A stretch of 20,383 bases of DNA from [Scytonema hofmanni] UTEX 2349 (GCF_000582685.1 NZ_KK073768.1:3905345-3925727); one strand, 5' to 3'. Shown: positions 1,706-20,383, counted from the stretch's first letter. Numbers and translations: made by a program. The notes: generated from the letters alone by a model not told the origin.

Positions 1706-2998
1706 TTACAATTCAATTGCTGTCTGCACCTGTAAGTTAGTAAAACCCGCAACTCGTTGACTATCTTCGGGGTTAAGGCGAATTTTTACTTCAATTACTC
1801 GGCGATCTAAATTTTCTCCTGGCTGATTGCTGAAAACGTTTTGCCGATTTACCTGCAAGCCAATTTGAGAAACGGTGCCGCGCAGTTTACCAGAAAACGC
1901 TTGACTGGTAATTACAGCTTGCTGTCCGAGTTTCACTTTACTAATATCGGTTTGATAAACTTCTGTAACTGCAACCATCTTGTCAGTTTGTGCTAAGTCT
2001 GCAATGCCAGCGTCATCAATTTTTTCGCCTATTCGCGTGTGAATTTTCAGAATTTTTCCTGTTATTGGTGCTTTGATATAAGCTGCTTCTAAGTCGGTTT
2101 TGGCGTGTTTGACTGAAGCGATCGCATTATCAACTTCTGTCTGCGCTGCTTGCACATCTACCGAACGAACTTCGGAAATACTATTAAATGTGGCTTTGGC
2201 TTCGCTGATTTGTTTGTTACCAGTGGCATTAATTCGGTTGAGTGTGGCTTTGGCTTCGCTGATTTGCTTGTTACCTGTGGCGTTAATTCGGTTGAAAACG
2301 GCTTTCGCTTCACTTAATTGCTGTTTGCTAGTTTCTACAGTTAACCGCTTACTATCAAACAAAGAACTAGAAATTGCACCTTCTTTATATAATTGTTGAT
2401 AACGCTGATATTCAGCTTGCGCGTTGTTAAGTTCGGCTTCAAGTTTTCTAATTGTTGCTTGTTGGGCAATCTTGTCTCCTTGTAATTGCGCTTTTAATCG
2501 GGCTATAGTTTCAGCTTGAGCGATTTTATCACCTTGCAATTGCGCCTGCAAACGTTCAACACTAGCTTGTTGTGCTTGAATTTCTCCGGTTTTTGCCCCA
2601 GCTTTTACTTGTGCGAGTTTCGATGAAGCGACATTTATCTGTTGTTGAGTTTGTTGGAAAGCGTCTTGCAAGCGATCGCGAGAATCGAGAATTGCCACAA
2701 CTTGTCCAACTTGGACTGTATCACCTTCAGATACCAATATTTTCGCAATGCGATCGCCATCCAAAGCTAAAGGTGCAGACAACTTAATTACTTCTGCTTC
2801 TGGCTCAAGTCGTGCTAGCGCTGTTACTTTTTGAGGAATGCGAGGTGTAGTTTCTACTTGATTGGATGCAGAATTGTCAGCAACCCCAAACTGAGAAACA
2901 CCATAAAGAGCGATCGCACCTGTAATTCCAGTTGCAGCAACTATTAACCCAATCAACCAGTAACGATTTCCAACTTTAAATAAAAGATTTGTACTCAT
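1706..2998 (-). CDS. devB: DevB-family membrane fusion protein (HlyD-like periplasmic adaptor) of an ABC exporter
   Basis: ORF 1706-3067 trimmed to ATG 2998-2996 (MSTNLLFKVGNRYWLIGLIVAATGITGAIALYG). It has an N-terminal TM anchor, long coiled-coil repeats (AQLQGDKIAQ x2, NRINATGNKQISEAKAT x2) and a C-terminal beta-barrel region (VTEVYQTDISKVKLGQQAVITS). The longer ORF start would overlap the TetR gene by 70 nt. Confidence 0.85.
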   Translation of the reverse strand: MSTNLLFKVGNRYWLIGLIVAATGITGAIALYGVSQFGVADNSASNQVETTPRIPQKVTALARLEPEAEVIKLSAPLALDGDRIAKILVSEGDTVQVGQVVAILDSRDRLQDAFQQTQQQINVASSKLAQVKAGAKTGEIQAQQASVERLQAQLQGDKIAQAETIARLKAQLQGDKIAQQATIRKLEAELNNAQAEYQRYQQLYKEGAISSSLFDSKRLTVETSKQQLSEAKAVFNRINATGNKQISEAKATLNRINATGNKQISEAKATFNSISEVRSVDVQAAQTEVDNAIASVKHAKTDLEAAYIKAPITGKILKIHTRIGEKIDDAGIADLAQTDKMVAVTEVYQTDISKVKLGQQAVITSQAFSGKLRGTVSQIGLQVNRQNVFSNQPGENLDRRVIEVKIRLNPEDSQRVAGFTNLQVQTAIEL

Positions 2999-3588
2999 AA
3001 TTTTCCTGTATTTAACATATTTTCTTTCTCTAAATATGCCATTAGCATTTTGCCCAATAAAGTACATTGTTCGGGAATCGAAACCATTTTATTCTTGAAT
3101 AATCGCTCGACTATTAGCCCATCAATAAACGAGTATATAAATGCTGCTATTACTGGATCTTGAATACCTGAAATTTCATATATGGCTTGTTTATATCTCT
3201 CATTTATTCTATTAAATGCGTCAATATTTTGCATTCCTTGAGCGTTTTGATGCTGACAAAAGTCAACTAATAAATAAGTCCATTTAATCAAGTAATCCTC
3301 TTCTTTTATTAGGAATTTGCCAATAATTTCTAGCTGTTCTGGCAGTGTTTGCGTTCCTGACAACTCAGTTGTTGCCTTCAACAAATCTTGTTGACATATT
3401 TCCTCCATCAATTGCTCAAATAAAGCTTGCTTGCTGGGAAAATAATGATACAGCGTCCCAGTAGAAACTCTTAATCCGTCAGCAATTTGGCGCATGGTAA
3501 TCGAGCCATAGCCTTTCTCGGCAAATAAATCAAAGCATTTGCTAAGTAATTCTTTGCGATATTGGTTATGGTCAACAATTTTCGGCAT
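2995..3588 (-). CDS. TetR/AcrR family transcriptional regulator
   Basis: N-terminal HTH FAEKGYGSITMRQIADGLRVSTGTLYHYFPSKQALF. Its TGA stop overlaps the devB ATG (ATGA at 2998-2995), suggesting one operon and translational coupling. Confidence 0.9.
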   Translation of the reverse strand: MPKIVDHNQYRKELLSKCFDLFAEKGYGSITMRQIADGLRVSTGTLYHYFPSKQALFEQLMEEICQQDLLKATTELSGTQTLPEQLEIIGKFLIKEEDYLIKWTYLLVDFCQHQNAQGMQNIDAFNRINERYKQAIYEISGIQDPVIAAFIYSFIDGLIVERLFKNKMVSIPEQCTLLGKMLMAYLEKENMLNTGKL

Positions 3589-9024: not shown

Positions 9025-10671
9025 ATGCATAGTAGAGAAGCAGAAGAAGCATTAAGAGAAAGTGAAAGACAATTTCGTGCCATATTTGACCAAACATTTC
9101 AATTTATGTGGCTTTTAAATCTGGATGGTACACTTTTAAAGGCGAATCAAACAGCACTGAAATTTGGCGGATTGCAAGCAACAGATGTAGTTGAATATCC
9201 ATTTTGGCAAGCGCAGTGGTGGATGATTTCTCAAGAAATACAAACCCAATTAAAAAGTGCGATCGCTCAAGCTGCGGCAGGTGAATTTGTTCGCTACGAA
9301 GTAGATATACTTGGTGTAGGAGAAATAGTGCAAACAATTGACTTTTCCCTCAAACCAGTTTTAGATGAAACCGGCAAAATAGTATTACTAATTTCTGAAG
9401 GACGGGACATCAGCGAGCGAAAAGCCGCACGACACGAACGCAAACTTGGATTATCAGCCTTATGCTGGTGTGAAGACGAATTTCGCGCTTTAAGCGAAGC
9501 TTCCCCAGTCGGTATCTTTCGAGTAAATCCCCAAGGTGGATGTATCTACACCAATCCTCGCGCTCAAGCTATTTGCGGTTACACCTTTGAAGAAGCTTTA
9601 GGACATGGCTGGATCAAGTTCGTTCATCCAGAAGATCGTCAGCTTTATTTTTCTCGTTGGTTACAAGCAGTAACAGCAAATCAAGAATTTATTGGTGAAG
9701 TACGTTCTGTTCATCGAGACGGAACTATACGTTTTTGTCGGCTTAAAACAGCTCCGATTTTTTCTGACGAAAAAGAATTAATCGGTCATGTCGGAACGGT
9801 TGAAGACATTACCGAAATGCGAGCTATAGAAAAGATGAAAAACGAGTTTCTTTCTGTTGTCAGCCACGAGTTGCGAACACCATTAGCTTCGATTCGCGGT
9901 TCTTTAGGATTGCTAGCTTCCGGACGACTCAACAACCAACCAGAAAAAGCGCGACGCATGTTAGAAATTGCCGCGCTTGATACTGAACGCTTAGTACGTT
10001 TAGTCAATCAAGTTCTTGATTTAGAGCGACTAGAATCAAGCAAAATTGTCCTGGCAAAACATCCATGTAATGTTGCTATTTTAATGCAGCAAGCAATAGA
10101 GGGTGTGCGAAGTTTTGCCGAAGAAGCTAACATCACCCTCAGATTTTTTTCCCTATCTATTGAGATATGTGCCGATGGCGATCGCATCATTCAAACTCTT
10201 GTCAACCTGCTAGCAAACGCCGTTAAATTTTCGCCCTCAGGGAGTACTGTTATTCTGAGTGCAGAAGTTCAAAAGGACAAGGAGGATAAGGGGACAAGGG
10301 GACAAGGGGACAAGGAGGACAAGGAGGACAAGGAGGACAAGGAGGAAATTTCTATATTTTCCTTATCTTCCTCCTGCCCCTTGTCTCCCCCCTCTCCCAT
10401 TTCCCCATCCCCCACATCACGCTTCCCCCCTTCCCACATTCCCTATCTTTTATTCAAAGTCAAAGACCAAGGACGGGGTATTCCTGCTGATAAACTAGAA
10501 AGTATTTTTGGCAGGTTTGAGCAAGTTGATGCTTCAGACTCCCGCAATTCTTACGGTACAGGACTTGGACTAGCGATATGTCGCACTATTGTGCAGCAGC
10601 ATAACGGGAAAATTTGGGTTGAAAGCGTTTTCGGTGAAGGCAGTATTTTCTACTTCACCCTACCACTGTGA
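9025..10671 (+). CDS. PAS-PAS sensor histidine kinase with a low-complexity insertion in the ATPase domain
   Basis: Two PAS modules (FRAIFDQTFQFMWLL..., SEASPVGIFRVNPQGGCIYTNPRAQAICGY). H-box FLSVVSHELRTPL, N-box LVNLLANAVKFS, G1 KDQGRGIP, G2 GTGLGLAICRTIVQQHNG. Confidence 0.88.
   Translation: MHSREAEEALRESERQFRAIFDQTFQFMWLLNLDGTLLKANQTALKFGGLQATDVVEYPFWQAQWWMISQEIQTQLKSAIAQAAAGEFVRYEVDILGVGEIVQTIDFSLKPVLDETGKIVLLISEGRDISERKAARHERKLGLSALCWCEDEFRALSEASPVGIFRVNPQGGCIYTNPRAQAICGYTFEEALGHGWIKFVHPEDRQLYFSRWLQAVTANQEFIGEVRSVHRDGTIRFCRLKTAPIFSDEKELIGHVGTVEDITEMRAIEKMKNEFLSVVSHELRTPLASIRGSLGLLASGRLNNQPEKARRMLEIAALDTERLVRLVNQVLDLERLESSKIVLAKHPCNVAILMQQAIEGVRSFAEEANITLRFFSLSIEICADGDRIIQTLVNLLANAVKFSPSGSTVILSAEVQKDKEDKGTRGQGDKEDKEDKEDKEEISIFSLSSSCPLSPPSPISPSPTSRFPPSHIPYLLFKVKDQGRGIPADKLESIFGRFEQVDASDSRNSYGTGLGLAICRTIVQQHNGKIWVESVFGEGSIFYFTLPL
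10273..10443 (+). repeat. 171-nt in-frame quasi-palindromic repeat block: purine-rich GGACAAGGA/GGGGACAA tandem units followed by a pyrimidine-rich partially complementary arm
   Basis: Encodes KDKEDKGTRGQGDKEDKEDKEDKEEISIFSLSSSCPLSPPSPISPSPTSRFPPSHIP between the N-box and G1-box. For example, GGGGACAAGGGG in the left arm against CCCCTTGTCTCCCC in the right arm. Confidence 0.65.
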
Positions 10672-15852: not shown

Positions 15853-17580
15853 ATGCTTGAACATGATGTGATTATTATCGGTGGGGGATTGGCTGGATGT
15901 CGGGCAGCAGTGGAAATTGCCAGAACCGATCCTAGCTTGAATGTGGCTGTGGTGGCGAAAACTCACCCGATTCGTTCCCACTCGGTAGCTGCCCAAGGTG
16001 GGATGGCAGCGTCGCTGAGAAACGTGGATACAGAAGATAGCTGGGAAGCACACGCTTTTGATACAGTCAAGGGTTCCGATTATTTAGCAGACCAAGACGC
16101 GGTAGAAATTCTTACCCGTGAAGCACCAGATGTAGTAATCGACTTGGAACACATGGGTGTTTTATTCTCCCGCTTAAATGATGGTCGCATTGCCCAACGC
16201 GCTTTTGGCGGACATTCTCACAATCGTACTTGCTACGCTGCCGATAAAACCGGTCACGCAATTTTACACGAATTGGTGAACAACTTGCGGCGTTACGGTG
16301 TGCAAATTTATCAAGAATGGTACGTAATGCGCCTGATATTAGAAGAAGGTCAGGCGAAAGGTGTAGTCATGTACCACCTTTTGGATGGGGAAATAGTCGT
16401 AGTCCGGGCTAAGGCGGTGATGTTTGCTACAGGTGGCTATGGTCGCGTTTATAACACCACTTCTAATGATTACGCTTCTACGGGTGATGGTTTGGCAATG
16501 ACTGCGATCGCTGGTTTGCCACTGCAAGATATGGAATTTGTCCAATTCCACCCCACTGGATTATATCCCGTTGGGGTGCTAATTTCGGAAGCAGTGCGGG
16601 GGGAAGGAGCTTATTTGATTAATAGCGAAGGCGATCGCTTTATGGCGAATTACGCACCTAGCCGCATGGAACTTGCTCCTCGTGATATTACCTCACGAGC
16701 GATCGCTTATGAAATTCGCGCCGGTCGTGGTGTTCATCTAGATGGTAGTGCAGGGGGTCCATTTGTCTATCTTGACTTGCGTCACATGGGCAAAGAAAAA
16801 ATTATGAGCCGCGTTCCCTTTTGTTGGGAAGAAGCACATCGCTTAGTTGGTGTTGATGCGGTAACGCAACCGATGCCAGTACGTCCGACAATTCATTATT
16901 GTATGGGTGGTATCCCAGTTAACACCGATGGTCAAGTCCGCAGTAGTGATAAAGGACTTGTTGAGGGCTTCTTTGCCGCTGGTGAGACATCTTGTGTATC
17001 CGTACATGGGGCAAATAGACTTGGTAGTAATTCTTTGTTGGAATGCGTGGTTTACGGAAAGAGAACCGGAAGTGCGATCGCTCGATTTGTCCAAAACCGC
17101 AAGTTACCCACAATAGACGAGCAAAGTTACATCAAAGAGGCAAAGCAACAAATTCAAGCTTTGCTAGATCAACCTGGGCAGTATCGCATTAACCAAGTGC
17201 GTCAAGCCTTCCAAGATTGTATGACAGAATATTGCGGCGTTTTCCGCACCCAAGAATTAATGCGTCAAGGTTTAGAACAAATACAAGAATTACAACAAAA
17301 AGCTTCGCAAATATATTTAGATGACAAAGGCAATTCTTGGAATACAGAAATTGTTGAAGCGTTGGAAACGCGAAGTTTAATGGTGGTAGGGCAAACGATT
17401 CTTTCCTCAGCTTTGAATCGTCAAGAAAGTCGGGGCGCCCACTTCCGTGAAGATTATCCCCAGCGAGATGATGAAAACTTCCTCAGACACACACTAGCTT
17501 ATTATTCTCCGGCAGGAATTGATATTCAATATCGTCCAGTGACGATTACGATGTTTGAGCCAAAAGAGCGGAAATATTAA
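15853..17580 (+). CDS. sdhA: succinate dehydrogenase/fumarate reductase flavoprotein subunit
   Basis: FAD fold [15 protein letters not shown], covalent-FAD histidine context [11 protein letters not shown], then [31 protein letters not shown] and [12 protein letters not shown]. Confidence 0.95.
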
Positions 17581-17596
17581 CATTAGTTTGCATGTT

Positions 17597-17659
17597 GTCA
17601 AGAGTCAAGGGTCAAAAGTTAAGAGTCAAGAGTCAAGAGTCAAGAGTCAAGAGTCAATT
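17597..17659. repeat. STRR-like heptamer tract (GTCAAGA x9, slightly degenerate)
   Basis: gtcaaga gtcaagg gtcaaaa gttaaga gtcaaga x4 gtcaatt, directly after sdhA. Confidence 0.85.
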
Positions 17660-17666
17660 GAAAGAT

Positions 17667-17696
17667 AAAGTATGTTTGCGAACATACTTTTTTTTA
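17667..17696 (+). terminator. rho-independent terminator of sdhA
   Basis: Stem AAAGTATGTT, loop TGCG, stem AACATACTTT, running into a T-run. Confidence 0.75.
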
Positions 17697-17708
17697 TACT
17701 TCATACAT

Positions 17709-17963
17709 TCATCTTTGTTGCAAGAAGTCAAGTTCTAACTCCTCTAGCAAGATTTTTACTAAGTCACCAATGATGACTTTAGCTACCTCATGCTTGGGTA
17801 ATGGCATTCTTATCTCCAAAGTTCCCTGGCTGTAAGCCAACCGAGCGGCTCGATGGTCGCCAAATTCTTCTATAATTGCTTCAAATTCCTGCCAGTTGAC
17901 ATTGTGGAACATGACTCTATGTCCCGGCGGAACACTTAATTGTCGCAATTGAAGTGTTACCAT
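17709..17963 (-). pseudogene. Uma2-family (DUF820) endonuclease, N-terminal ~84-aa fragment
   Basis: MVTLQLRQLSVPPGHRVMFHNVNWQEFEAIIEEFGDHRAARLAYSQGTLEIRMPLPKHEVAKVIIGDLV matches the usual Uma2 N-terminus. Family members are about 190 aa, and the catalytic C-terminal half is missing here. Confidence 0.55.
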
Positions 17964-18034
17964 TATAAACCAATGAAATTTGCGGTTGAGCTTCCAAAAG
18001 CCAGTATGAAATTATCTTAGTATAGTTTTGCATA

Positions 18035-18133
18035 AGAACGAGCGCGTTTTTTAACGCAAAGGAACGCGGAGGGAAGCGCAGAGTGACGCAGAGTTTTTTT
18101 AAGAGGATTCGCTACAAAAAAAGCGCTCGTTCT
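18035..18133. mobile_element. MITE-like element: ~18-bp terminal inverted repeats (AGAACGAGCGCGTTTTTT ... AAAAAAAGCGCTCGTTCT) around a CGCAGAG-rich core
   Basis: The inverted repeats were read directly. The core aacgcaaaggaacgcggagggaagcgcagagtgacgcagag resembles dispersed Nostocales intergenic repeats. Confidence 0.35.
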
Positions 18134-18201
18134 GTACTTAGCTGTATCACTGAAAGGGAGTCTAGAGTAAGCGATCGCACTATTACTAAAATAATGTATA
18201 A

Positions 18202-18300
18202 AATAAGCTTTTCATCTTTATTGAAATTTTTTCCAACTCTGCGATCGCTGGAAATCAACAATATACACTATGTAGCGATGATTGCACTCACCGACAAACT
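18202..18300 (+). repeat. conserved leader, copy 1, preceding the 21-nt array
   Basis: ~90% identical by eye to 19962-20060: aataagcttttcatYtttattgaaattttt...ctgcgatcgctgKaaatcaacaatatacaMtatgtagcgatgattgcactcaccRacaaactt. Contains a HIP1 site. Confidence 0.85.
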
Positions 18301-18301
18301 T

Positions 18302-18490
18302 TAAGCCTTAAGGTTAGAGCATTAAGCCTTAAGGTTAGAGCATTAAGCCTTAAGGTTACAACATTAAGCCTTAAGGTTAGAGCATTAAGCCTTAAGGTTA
18401 GAGCATTAAGCCTTAAGGTTACAACATTAAGCCTTAAGATTAGAACATTAAGCCTTAAGGTTAGAGCATTAAGCCTTAAGGTTAAAGCGA
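18302..18490 (+). repeat. spacerless tandem array 1: nine 21-nt units TAAGCCTTAAGGTTA-NAN-CAT
   Basis: Units start at 18302, 18323, 18344, 18365, 18386, 18407, 18428, 18449 and 18470. The variable triplets in order are GAG, GAG, CAA, GAG, GAG, CAA, GAA (this unit also has a G>A change), GAG, AAG. The last unit merges into HIP1 GCGATCGC (18487-18494). Confidence 0.95.
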
Positions 18491-18496
18491 TCGCTG

Positions 18497-18529
18497 TTGA
18501 CAAGAAGTAAAAGTGCGATCGGTTATAAT
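18497..18529 (+). promoter_or_regulatory. possible promoter of the RHH gene (TTGACA ... TATAAT)
   Basis: Consensus hexamers at 18497-18502 and 18524-18529, but the 21-nt spacer is non-optimal. Confidence 0.3.
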
Positions 18530-18588
18530 AGTGAAGCTCCTATACTTAATAATGTACAATGTGATGTATACATTATTGAACGCAAATT

Positions 18589-18846
18589 GTGTCGAGCAAA
18601 ATTCGCAAGCAGATTTATATAGAACCGCGTCAGGAACATCTGCTAAAAGCGATCGCCCAACAAGCTGGTGTAAGTGAAGCAGAAGTTATTCGCTCGTGTA
18701 TTGACCTTCATCTAAGTGGAATCACTGCACCCCAGATTGATATCGCAGCGTGGGAAGCGGAAAAAGAATTTATAGAACAAATCAAAACTCGACCTGTTAA
18801 ACTTGGAAGTCGAGATTGGCAGCGCCAAGACCTCTATGAACGGTAG
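18589..18846 (+). CDS. ribbon-helix-helix (CopG/VapB-type) antitoxin
   Basis: GTG start. KQIYIEPRQEHLLKAIAQQAGVSEAEVIRSCIDLHL is the typical RHH antitoxin N-terminus. The C-terminal WQRQDLYER tail is typical of partners of PIN toxins. Confidence 0.7.
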   Translation: MSSKIRKQIYIEPRQEHLLKAIAQQAGVSEAEVIRSCIDLHLSGITAPQIDIAAWEAEKEFIEQIKTRPVKLGSRDWQRQDLYER

Positions 18847-18874
18847 GGTTTTAATTGATACGAAGTTGCGCTAA
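18836..18874 (+). pseudogene. stub of a PIN (vapC) toxin gene: MNGRVLIDTKLR*
   Basis: Its ATG overlaps the RHH gene end by 11 nt, as in vapBC operons. The VLIDT signature is present. The frame breaks at ~18862/18863, exactly where homology to the copy-2 hicB upstream region begins. Confidence 0.35.
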
Positions 18875-18906
18875 AATGTACACTATAACAGTGCGATCGA
18901 TTTATC

Positions 18907-19107
18907 ATGAAAATTAAGGCGGTTATCTGGCAAGAAGACGGTGTATGGTGTGCTTCTGTACCTGCCTTACCAGGATGTCACACATGGGGAGAAAGCTACG
19001 AACACTTGTTAGAGATGCTTAAAGAAGCGATCCAGGGTTGGCTTGAAGTTGGTAGCCAGAATGAAGAACTTGAAGCAGATAAACAGTTAATTGAATTATC
19101 TCTATGA
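18907..19107 (+). CDS. hicB: HicB-family (UPF0150) antitoxin-like protein, 66 aa, no DNA-binding extension
   Basis: MKIKAVIWQEDGVWCASVPALPGCHTWGESYEHLLEMLKEAIQGWLE is the characteristic HicB N-domain pattern. A near-identical second copy starts at 20299. Confidence 0.8.
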   Translation: MKIKAVIWQEDGVWCASVPALPGCHTWGESYEHLLEMLKEAIQGWLEVGSQNEELEADKQLIELSL

Positions 19108-19133
19108 AATCCCTTTCCAGCAAAGCTTTATAG
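19104..19133 (+). pseudogene. stub of a hicA toxin gene: MKSLSSKAL*
   Basis: ATGA overlap with the hicB stop. MKS-S-K resembles cyanobacterial HicA N-termini (MKS.SGKE...). It terminates after 9 codons. Confidence 0.3.
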
Positions 19134-19249
19134 CCTTTCCTAGTCTGCTGAGGTACAAATTTATCTGCGTCCATCAGCGTTTATCTATCTTCATCTGCGG
19201 TTAATTCTTTACATCAAGAAAAAGCAAATTGTGTCGAGCAAAAATTGTG

Positions 19250-19594
19250 CTAAATATACAATAATTGATTAGCAATTTCGTCTGCCGTCAAAGTATCAAG
19301 AAGGATGGCAATTCTTTCGACAATTTCATAGGAACTTCTACGTTTAGCAATCAAAATCCCTGCATGATGTTGACTATTAATTAGATAGTTTGTGTGTAAT
19401 TCCTCAAAATCAAGTCGATTATGAGTTAAAATACAATGCCCAATAGATACAGCAAAAGCTAGTTGTGTTTGATCTGGTTCTCCCAACATTTGTTGTTCTC
19501 GTGCTGTCGTTGCATCAAAACCTCTTGCTAAAAGTAAAGTAGCTACGAGAACATCTACATCTTCATCAATATAAACTTGAGCAAAAATCGTCAT
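19250..19594 (-). CDS. DUF5615-family PIN-like protein (putative toxin partner of DUF433)
   Basis: VYIDEDVDVLVATLLLARGFDATTAREQQMLGEPDQTQLAFAVSIGHCILTHNRLDFEELH...HAGILIA. ATGA overlap with the upstream DUF433 gene. Confidence 0.75.
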   Translation of the reverse strand: MTIFAQVYIDEDVDVLVATLLLARGFDATTAREQQMLGEPDQTQLAFAVSIGHCILTHNRLDFEELHTNYLINSQHHAGILIAKRRSSYEIVERIAILLDTLTADEIANQLLYI

Positions 19595-19884
19595 TTTTGA
19601 TTTAATCTAGCTTTAATAGCTGGATGGACTAATTCATCAGGGACATGATTACGCTCGATATATTCATTAATTTCTACTTGATGATCTAAGTAAAAACTCA
19701 AAGCATCAAAGACTTGCGCTAAAGTTAAATGAGGTAAGTGTAGCGGGATTTCTTCTGGTCTAATACCTAAACGCCAATTTTCAACAATTGCTCTCACAGG
19801 GGTTCTAGTTCCCTTAATAATCGGTTCACCTGATAAAATATCAGGCTGTCGGGTAACATAGCGAGAGTTTGTAGTAGTTGTCAT
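19591..19884 (-). CDS. DUF433-domain protein (putative antitoxin/HTH partner)
   Basis: ITRQPDILSGEPIIKGTRTPVRAIVENWRLGIRPEEIPLHLPHLTLAQVFDALSFYLDH is the canonical DUF433 pattern. Confidence 0.82.
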   Translation of the reverse strand: MTTTTNSRYVTRQPDILSGEPIIKGTRTPVRAIVENWRLGIRPEEIPLHLPHLTLAQVFDALSFYLDHQVEINEYIERNHVPDELVHPAIKARLNQK

Positions 19885-19961
19885 ACTAATGAGATTTTTG
19901 GCAGTATCTCTGTTAATCTATCACAGACTAGTACGGCTATGCGAAACTCAAAAGCTTGTAG

Positions 19962-20060
19962 AATAAGCTTTTCATTTTTATTGAAATTTTTCAACTTCTG
20001 CGATCGCTGTAAATCAACAATATACAATATGTAGCGATGATTGCACTCACCAACAAACTT
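19962..20060 (+). repeat. conserved leader, copy 2
   Basis: See 18202-18300. Confidence 0.85.
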
Positions 20061-20249
20061 TAGTCATTAAGGTTAGAACATTAAGCCTTAAGGTTAGAGC
20101 ATTAAGCCTTAAGGTTACAACATTAAGCCTTAAGGTTACAACATTAAGCCTTAAGGTTACAACATTAAGCCTTAAGGTTAGAGCATTAAGCCTTAAGGTT
20201 AGAGCATTAAGCCTTAAGGTTAAAGCATTAAGCCTTAAGGTTAAAGCGA
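20061..20249 (+). repeat. spacerless tandem array 2: nine 21-nt units
   Basis: Units start at 20061 (degenerate: tagtcattaaggttagaacat), 20082, 20103, 20124, 20145, 20166, 20187, 20208 and 20229. The variable triplets in order are GAA, GAG, CAA, CAA, CAA, GAG, GAG, AAG, AAG. The array ends in HIP1 GCGATCGC. Confidence 0.95.
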
Positions 20250-20298
20250 TCGCGTAGTTGCGCTAAAATGTACACCATAACAGTGCGATCAATTTATC

Positions 20299-20383
20299 AT
20301 GAAAATTAAGGCAGTTATCTGGCAAGAAGACGGTGTATGGTGTGCTTCTGTACCTGCCTTACCAGGATGTCACACATGGGGAG
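20299..20383 (+). CDS. hicB: HicB-family protein, second copy (5' part; runs off the right edge)
   Basis: One mismatch in 85 nt compared with 18907-18991. The upstream 45 nt (agttgcgctaaaatgtacacYataacagtgcgatcRatttatc) is also shared. Confidence 0.8.
   Translation, partial: MKIKAVIWQEDGVWCASVPALPGCHTWG

Follow-up and report, generated by a model that had tools for sequence, protein, structure and literature searches.

What is the run of contiguous 21-bp repeats that lies in the 3′ part of a 20,383-nucleotide stretch of the [Scytonema hofmanni] UTEX 2349 genome (NZ_KK073768.1:3905345-3925727; hereafter the window), and does it work together with the small toxin-antitoxin genes beside it? An initial annotation, prepared from the sequence alone, described a 99-bp leader followed by nine spacerless 21-nt units that end in a HIP1 site. 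It proposed that the array might be a processed repeat RNA acting with the downstream HicB-like protein, a phased binding array for an adjacent ribbon-helix-helix (RHH) or HicB protein, or a minisatellite carried by a mobile cassette. From the comparisons presented below, it is a low-copy modular repeat element of the Nostocaceae, so far undescribed as far as our searches reach. These comparisons define a repeat family in Nostoc and its relatives, with a leader core, 21-bp units, a HIP1 end and an ancestral syntenic site.

The existence of nine head-to-tail units ending in HIP1 was borne out. Tandem Repeats Finder (TRF) reports 9.0 copies with a period of 21 at 18301-18488 (93% matches), and the pattern TAAGCCTTAAGGTTANNNCAT, with three or fewer mismatches allowed, matches 18 times across the window when 0.03 matches are expected from shuffled sequences. 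Nine of the 18 matches lie head-to-tail at 18302-18490, and the last of these units runs into HIP1 (GCGATCGC) at 18487-18494. The remaining nine matches belong to a second leader and nine-unit array (19964-20253), not mentioned in the initial annotation, that is 93% identical to the first copy and has a second hicB-like gene directly behind it. We refer to the two copies as modules 1 and 2. Some finer claims about the units held only in part. Variation is indeed located within the 'NAN' triplet, at two positions rather than three, with the middle A invariant. The 8-bp palindrome and the minus-strand ATG-NTN-TAA string, both said to be present in every unit, are each carried by eight of nine, as unit 7 has CCTTAAGA in place of the palindrome and unit 9 terminates in CGA instead of CAT. 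The parts of the arrays and their boundaries are as follows.

18302-18490, plus strand: array 1, nine 21-bp units with the consensus TAAGCCTTAAGGTTA-GAG-CAT.
18487-18501, plus strand: HIP1 (GCGATCGC) followed by TGTTGAC, the conserved 3′ end motif of the element.
20061-20253, plus strand: array 2, nine units (the first degenerate), with its HIP1 end at 20246-20253.
18168-18187 (left arm) and 18506-18525 (right arm): 20-nt inverted repeat around module 1, 90% complementary, with HIP1-like cores in both arms.

The same HIP1 and TGTTGAC sequences are found 3′ of the arrays in L010, L014, L029 (two arrays), L031, L049 and L053 (loci are cited here by L numbers). At L037, the 17-mer AAGCGATCGCACTATTA from the inverted repeat of module 1 instead flanks the module as a direct repeat.

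A scan for three CCTTAAGG palindromes at 21-bp spacing was run over GTDB, with each species represented by a single genome. Eleven of the 35 loci recovered, all from Nostoc, Tolypothrix or cyanobacterial metagenome-assembled genomes (MAGs), carry the window-type unit, and most of these 11 also share the leader core (...TGCACTCACCAACAAACTT) and the 3′ end (TTAAAGCGATCGCTGTTGAC). The hosts of the family are nearly throughout Nostoc, Tolypothrix and Hassallia, together with two MAGs labelled uncultured cyanobacterium and Chroococcales cyanobacterium. All members are intergenic. One to three arrays were found per genome, and these are lower bounds because the scan demanded three perfect palindromes and sampled only species representatives.

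Arrays lie near genes for DUF3326 and a 2Fe-2S ferredoxin in L010, L014, L015 and L031, and upstream of a 133-aa open reading frame (ORF), F29, in L014, L015, L021 and L031. F29 belongs to the core genes shared by Nostoc, Tolypothrix and Hassallia, and its 120 best homologs are 87-100% identical. When seven further genomes were fetched via F29, the array was present in all seven, between the ferredoxin gene and F29, upstream of acnB and in constant orientation. Altogether, 10 of 10 sampled ferredoxin-F29 loci have the array, and its carriers include Nostoc C052, N. edaphicum, N. punctiforme NIES-2108, N. commune NIES-4072, UHCC 0702, Tolypothrix NIES-4075 and Hassallia. The ancestral site is thereby shown to be the interval between a petF-like ferredoxin gene and F29, next to acnB. 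The copies in the window are likely to be secondary, because the arrangement of module 2 is similar to that of the ferredoxin locus: module 2 with its adjacent DUF433/DUF5615 genes resembles the N. edaphicum locus (L049), where the same gene pair sits between the ferredoxin gene and the leader with its array (one extra small ORF lies between), and also a remnant in NIES-2108. A remnant of the pair is present in L051.

F29 keeps a separate conserved upstream block of ~150 nt. Its product (L015 3416-3817; L049 6001-6396) is 131-133 aa in length with basic termini and has no Pfam, NCBIfam or PDB match that reaches the family cut-off. Source annotations conflict, naming it either an 'ATPase involved in DNA repair' or a 'folylpolyglutamate synthase'.

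Other arrays recovered by the scan form separate groups. A second 21-mer sub-family (L001, L003, L017 and L024) consists of alternating TAAGCCTTAAGGTTATAGCGT and ...TAAGGT units with HIP1 on both sides. In L003 and L017 its two strands match the A2 profile about equally well, and it adjoins a PIN-domain gene (L001, L003 and L017) and also a CHAT/NB-ARC/TPR gene (L003 and L017). Unrelated arrays that also have a 21-bp period and are centered on CCTTAAGG were found in MAGs of Bacteroidota, Ignavibacteria and other groups (L012, L016, L018, L019, L022, L034 and others), with four in the Bacteroidetes MAG MFD04780.bin.1.106 alone. Some of the non-cyanobacterial arrays lie in long open frames (L028, 645 aa; L023; L009) and others do not.

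How much of the 99-bp leader is part of the element? The alignments retain a core of ~30 nt. In L049, L053 and their relatives, the sequence to which the other two-thirds of the leader (18204-18269) align contains the start codon and putative promoter of a divergent toxin gene of the Gp49/HigB type, and on this basis most of the leader is a relic of the 5′ end of such a gene. The leader regions of the two modules are divided accordingly.

18204-18269, plus strand: distal leader, the apparent start-codon (CAT at 18212-18214) and promoter relic of a deleted divergent Gp49/HigB-type toxin gene.
18270-18301, plus strand: leader core ATGTAGCGATGATTGCACTCACCGACAAACTT (alignments A2 and A4).
19885-20060, plus strand: leader of copy 2 in its long form, with its core at 20029-20060; ~170 nt are homologous to the ferredoxin-locus leaders of L031, L047, L048 and L051.

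A minus-strand promoter-like site is located in the copy 2 equivalent of the distal leader (20013-19986), and another is located in L049. The 3′ ~20 nt of the leader core is the only 5′ flank that accompanies most arrays, and the core itself has diverged in L010 and L029b.

The number of units is variable. Among 20 arrays counted from core to HIP1, 12 carry 9 units, two carry 8, and single arrays carry 3, 4-5, 5, 7, 10 and 14. A rule that arrays never have more than nine units was rejected, as evident by the 10 units of L056 and the 14 of L057. Loci L047 and L048 have F29 genes that are 99.5% identical, yet they carry 5 versus 9 units, and at the window's own locus L037 has 3 units versus 9 in the window. 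Unit order and unit variants differ even among arrays of equal length, which points to in-register replacement of units. With the near-identical L047/L048 pair set aside, arrays of different species are 0.83-0.93 identical, and identity at third codon positions is 0.83-0.92 for F29 and 0.69-0.94 for the ferredoxin gene. We therefore rejected the proposal that the arrays are conserved in excess of their surroundings, and because array identity does not exceed that at third codon positions, conservation alone does not demonstrate selection.

The period of the unit offers a clue to its origin. Short tandemly repeated repetitive (STRR) heptamers are present in heterocyst-forming cyanobacteria, form hairpins and are of unknown function (PMC2670836). 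The 21-bp unit probably descended from heptamers of this type, judging from its internal periodicity and from one mixed array. At a lag of 7, the window consensus matches itself at 12 of 21 positions (permutation p = 0.002) and the family consensus at 10 of 21 (p about 0.02-0.03). The unit splits into the heptamers CATTAAG, CCTTAAG and GTTACAA, of which the first two are nearly identical and the third is not. In Tolypothrix brevis (L005 3859-4005; contig shared with L045), a seven-unit array of the window-type 21-mer that has no leader core is flanked exactly by inverted heptamer arrays, (AGTCAAG)n and (TTGACCC)n, such that the region forms one long palindrome. Two further resemblances concern the ends of the element. 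The degenerate first unit begins with TTGGTCA, which we take to be a published STRR2 unit, and TGTTGAC is the reverse complement of GTCAACA, which is a circular permutation of a heptamer that presumably corresponds to STRR3. The window also carries an STRR of its own.

17597-17657, plus strand: STRR-type heptamer array, GTCAAGA x 8.7, ~550 bp upstream of module 1.

The genes beside the arrays are those on which two of the initial explanations depend.

18589-18846, plus strand: 85-aa ORF, a possible RHH-type antitoxin, present after copy 1 only.
18907-19107, plus strand: hicB-like antitoxin gene, 66 aa (PF15919, E = 1.2e-8).
19104-19133, plus strand: hicA remnant encoding MKSLSSKAL and a stop; an intact 67-69-aa HicA is encoded there in L037, L041 and L042.
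19250-19884, minus strand: DUF5615 (19250-19594) and DUF433 (19591-19884) genes, a toxin-antitoxin-like pair divergent from module 2.
20300-20383, plus strand: second hicB-like gene, cut by the window end; 97% identical to 18861-18991.

The gene order beyond the window end was read in contig JACJTA010000013.1 (GCA_014698435.1), locus L036. The full order is a gene for an sdhA-like flavoprotein, the GTCAAGA STRR, an 84-aa ORF (minus), module 1, the 85-aa ORF, hicB with its hicA remnant, DUF5615/DUF433 (minus), module 2, the second hicB with its hicA remnant, a RelB-like ORF, a 144-aa ORF, a gene for an NB-ARC/TPR protein, XisH/XisI and an EF-G-like gene (minus). The second hicB is complete in L036. 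The 9-codon hicA remnant stands behind both hicB copies (window 19104-19133; L036 11590-11619), so both hicB genes of the window genome appear to be orphan antitoxins. In L037, a close relative, the sdhA-to-EF-G interval is limited to a single leader, three units and intact hicBA, and therefore the window genome seems to contain an expanded, duplicated and partly decayed version of this interval.

The 66-aa HicB has 290 homologs, mainly cyanobacterial, several of which are labelled HicB family antitoxin by their sources, and its gene has a conserved upstream block of its own and a promoter-like site. The 85-aa ORF yields only a weak HTH_6 match in Pfam, a weak best match in PDB (VapB26, E = 0.065) and nothing in NCBIfam; a remnant of it follows the array in L046.

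Searches by blastp with HicB, the 85-aa ORF, DUF433 and DUF5615 gave no matches among all ORFs of the 11 other Nostocales array loci. Locus L041 has HicB and HicA beside the equivalent of the EF-G gene and has no array, and the array is absent from the surroundings of two close HicB homologs, that of L041 (89% identical) and another (80% identical). Conversely, L046 has a window-type leader and nine units with hicBA deleted, and L037 has only 3 units ahead of intact hicBA. On the sequences compared, HicB is not a conserved neighbor of the array. Because of L041, L046, the array loci that lack homologs and the separate upstream block of hicB, hypotheses that depend on HicB or the RHH-like protein are unsupported. 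The proposed pairing of a repeat RNA with HicB is contradicted by L041 and L046, and the proposed array for the adjacent RHH or HicB protein finds no such homolog near the 11 other arrays.

Some minor features of this region can be noted here. A 23-nt direct repeat, AA[C/A]GCAAATTGTGTCGAGCAAAA, occurs at 18579-18601, where it spans the start of the 85-aa ORF, and at 19221-19243, where it resembles a truncated duplicate of the 5′ end of that ORF; L041 has a similar motif ahead of its hicB. ORFs of 64-79 aa run into or across the arrays (window 18083-18304 and 18288-18503; L049 5586-5780 and 5599-5838). Genes called over arrays, such as the 73-aa gene at L036 9177-9398 (window 18083-18304), are probably artifacts of annotating the repeats. 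Elsewhere in the window, there is a 54-bp repeat of 2.4 copies (2189-2322) inside the span of a 453-aa ORF (1706-3067, minus), and a 9-bp repeat of 8.4 copies (10274-10346) inside that of a 548-aa ORF (9025-10671).

Which explanation best accommodates these observations? We favor a minisatellite-type repeat element that has no dedicated partner, although we consider this about an even call. Its anatomy is a ~30-nt leader core, tandem 21-bp quasi-palindromic units (mode 9, range 3-14) and a terminal HIP1 with TGTTGAC, and its unit was probably built from STRR-type heptamers CATTAAG, CCTTAAG and GTTACAA. At the ferredoxin-F29 site of several genomes, the element and a divergent toxin-antitoxin operon of the HigB/Gp49 type stand back-to-back, with the putative promoter of the operon facing the element. 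Comparisons among loci suggest that copies joined the variable sdhA-to-EF-G islet along with toxin-antitoxin cassettes, and that the array and hicB segment was later duplicated. In-register replacement of units and the gain or loss of whole units would account for its dynamics. The element would have no dedicated protein partner and probably no specific role, only a generic STRR-like effect: each strand may fold into long hairpins composed of 12-bp AGCCUUAAGGUU unit-to-unit duplexes, and such hairpins could alter the stability or termination of transcripts that cross the array. The cassette-borne minisatellite of the initial annotation is thus the closest of its three ideas. The element is nevertheless not free-running, as it occupies a syntenic ferredoxin-F29 site across genera and has a modal number of nine.

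Several observations weigh against this preferred explanation. Nine units are present in 12 of 20 arrays despite their differing unit order, and a neutral minisatellite would be expected to drift more, although the independent cases of nine are fewer because several arrays are orthologs or recent duplicates. Within the unit, positions 16 and 18 vary freely, and T7, T8, A17, A20 and T21 are invariant. The element has a fixed polarity, in which the leader core lies on the 5′ side and HIP1/TGTTGAC on the 3′ side without exception. In L015, L043, L021 and L056, the core is immediately preceded by a perfect TATAAT or TGCTATAAT that adjoins GCACTCAC. Finally, L049 and L053 have a plus-strand terminator-like hairpin ~45 nt past the array, and L057 has it as well. 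The fixed polarity, the TATAAT boxes and the hairpin together would fit a discrete transcript.

These same observations are the foundation for the alternative that the element is a stand-alone structured noncoding RNA (ncRNA), transcribed from the plus strand between the −10 box 5′ of the core and the hairpin after the array, whose ~9 near-identical 21-nt modules would serve as a multivalent scaffold or sponge for an RNA-binding protein or nuclease with its gene elsewhere in the genome. We regard this as possible but unlikely. We are equally doubtful of its extension, in which a Nostocaceae-specific ncRNA gene of ~250-300 nt, with ~nine 21-nt modules, is transcribed from the leader core and conserved at the ferredoxin-F29 site, its RNA serves as a multivalent scaffold or decoy for a factor with its gene elsewhere, and selection holds the module number near nine. 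The 5′ end of such a plus-strand transcript would be expected near GCACTCACC. In addition to the points just listed, the called genes upstream in L049 and L053 are all on the opposite strand, and plus-strand AGCCUUAAGGUU is wholly self-complementary when G-U pairs are counted. The predicted folding is strong (about −73 kcal/mol, z about −6.7 to −6.8). However, the minus strand folds just as well, and since the units are palindromic this equality is uninformative with regard to strand. RNAalifold likewise predicts 12-bp unit-to-unit helices, but only 1 compensatory pair is found among 61 predicted pairs (covariation term +0.08). No family match was obtained with Rfam 15 covariance models (including NsiR1, Yfr and Cyano motifs; E up to 1) over 17000-20383, where three chance-level miRNA matches (E = 0.37-0.89) fall far under gathering scores. 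When the core, units and tail are paired with the 5′ regions of F29 and the ferredoxin gene, the duplex energies do not improve on those of shuffled sequences, and thus reveal no significant complementarity to these neighbors.

The candidate transcript signals are also unevenly distributed. The window copies have GATGAT where the other loci have TATAAT, no plus-strand promoter-like site was flagged in either window leader, and the terminator-like hairpin is absent from the window. The hairpin looks dispersed, and it is split or lost in L048, L047, L051, L031 and L056. It consists of the palindrome GGGGCACAGCAATGCTGTGCCC and a U-rich tail, flagged as a plus-strand terminator at L049 5800-5822 and L053 5802-5820 and past the array in L057. 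Fragments of GGGGCACAGCAATGCTGTGCCC recur in L021, L031, L048 and L051, suggesting that it is a small dispersed palindromic repeat. Moreover, the arrays of close relatives are reduced to 3-5 units.

A second alternative is that the DNA itself is the functional form, wherein a protein dimer occupies each CCTTAAGG palindrome once per two helical turns to create an operator, an insulator, or a centromere-like or iteron-like platform. The protein could be the antitoxin of an adjacent toxin-antitoxin module or a nucleoid protein. The 21-bp period with its 8-bp palindrome, the CTTAA core that is the most conserved block of the unit, the toxin-antitoxin operons that adjoin the leader at most loci and the modal number of nine are all consistent with this proposal. 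Nevertheless, we judge it improbable. There is no conserved neighboring protein, Pfam detects no DNA-binding domain in the 66-aa HicB, and arrays are retained at loci that have lost the adjoining toxin-antitoxin genes (L015, L031, L047, L048 and L046). Positions A17, A20 and T21, which are outside the palindrome, are as invariant as positions inside it, and the probable heptamer ancestry would account for the period, as 21 = 3 x 7. No rep or par gene lies nearby. By blastn, neither array nor leader matched plasmids (PLSDB, 72,556 records) or phages (INPHARED), with hicB alone matching a plasmid, and exact scans of IMG/VR viral contigs for two units and for the leader core found nothing.

The surroundings of the array might instead reflect a recombination hot spot, in which the repeats or the HIP1 sites that bound them favor the capture, duplication and loss of toxin-antitoxin and defense cassettes on the leader side. 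The genes between ferredoxin and the leader change in nearly every genome (DUF433/DUF5615, Gp49 with a helix-turn-helix gene, Uma2, TIR-GUN4 or a HigBA-like pair). In Nostoc sp. LPT, repeated TIR-GUN4/Uma2 cassettes separate three arrays that all point the same way, and the two window arrays bracket cassettes as well. Post-array segments that differ between genomes are bounded by HIP1 sites, and a link between HIP1 and site-specific recombination has been discussed (PMC4390886). Co-occurrence is not causation, however. No recombinase is consistently near, and variable islets rich in toxin-antitoxin genes are common in Nostoc with or without the array, so we consider a hot spot quite improbable.

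The remaining two readings can be set aside quickly. A type-III-like toxin-antitoxin system, composed of a processed repeat RNA and the downstream HicB-like protein, was a tempting story given that hicB follows the array, in the same direction, both in the window and in L037, but it has been removed as unsupported and we assign it hardly any credence: HicB looks like the antitoxin half of a conventional hicBA pair that relatives keep intact, the toxin gene hicA is truncated in the window, no ToxN/AbiQ-like gene was found, and the association with HicB is limited to one lineage and is contradicted by L041 and L046. Coding by the array, either of a heptad-repeat peptide (minus-strand ORF 18288-18503, ALTLRLN x 9) or of nine Met-Leu/Phe-stop mini-ORFs, is just as remote and was rejected for want of a credible start or family, because even though each strand has one stop-free frame over the array and AAGG lies 4 nt ahead of each minus-strand ATG, the ORF starts with TTG, its Pfam coiled-coil match is sub-threshold, unit number spans 3 to 14, and in L010 and L029 several units have lost the ATG through changes at C19.

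The favored minisatellite-type element has several implications. It is a concrete case of how STRR-type heptamers may evolve into higher-order repeats, and its preference for nine units is puzzling. Recognition of the family can improve annotation, as gene callers predict spurious ORFs over the array (the 73-aa call at 18083-18304 and 71-aa ORFs in relatives). The array is also a possible marker for strain typing, given that near-identical genomes differ in unit number. If a discrete RNA were in fact transcribed, the element would represent a new modular class of small RNAs (sRNAs).

We found the unit sequence in no relevant paper, and the supplement of Brenes-Alvarez 2016 has no entry under the PCC 7120 locus tags that we guessed. 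SDR5 differs in that it is described as inserting inside HIP1. The initial conclusion that the array is not a CRISPR, ToxI or NsiR1 system stands. CRISPR arrays have spacers between their repeats, whereas units of the Nostoc family are contiguous and spaced by 21 nt throughout. NsiR1 repeats are also tandem and reside in intergenic DNA of Nostocales. Each NsiR1 repeat is a complete sRNA gene of ~60 nt with its own promoter and terminator, and the array described here has no Rfam match. Like ToxI, the array is a tandem run of units without spacers that precedes a small gene of the same orientation. ToxI units are ~34-46 nt in length and, to our knowledge, always precede a gene for a ToxN/AbiQ-family endoribonuclease. 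In contrast, the genes 3′ of the arrays vary (the RHH-like ORF, hicB, F29 or a convergent Uma2 gene), and no ToxN-like Pfam match is present.

Plasmid iterons and centromeres resemble the element as contiguous direct repeats of about two helical turns, as with the seven 22-bp iterons of the R6K gamma origin and the centromere repeat parC. The element is instead chromosomal, with no rep or par gene near and no match in the plasmid records searched. BOX elements of Streptococcus pneumoniae (boxA-(boxB)n-boxC) are similar in that a conserved 5′ module, variable tandem units and a conserved 3′ module are arranged in intergenic DNA with strong predicted secondary structure. They number more than 100 per genome and have internal units of ~45 nt, and they differ from the element by unrelated sequences and by their occurrence in another phylum. 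STRRs also share features with the element, which is likewise tandem, intergenic, capable of forming hairpins and restricted to Nostocales. The 21-mer has an apparent 7-nt sub-period, L005 carries 21-mers inside heptamer arrays, and the GTCAAGA STRR lies ~550 bp 5′ of module 1. The element differs from STRRs by a period of 21 rather than 7, an 8-bp palindrome in the unit, and a conserved core with HIP1/TGTTGAC flanks. It is further distinguished by the few arrays found in each genome, by synteny across genera and by a modal number of nine units.

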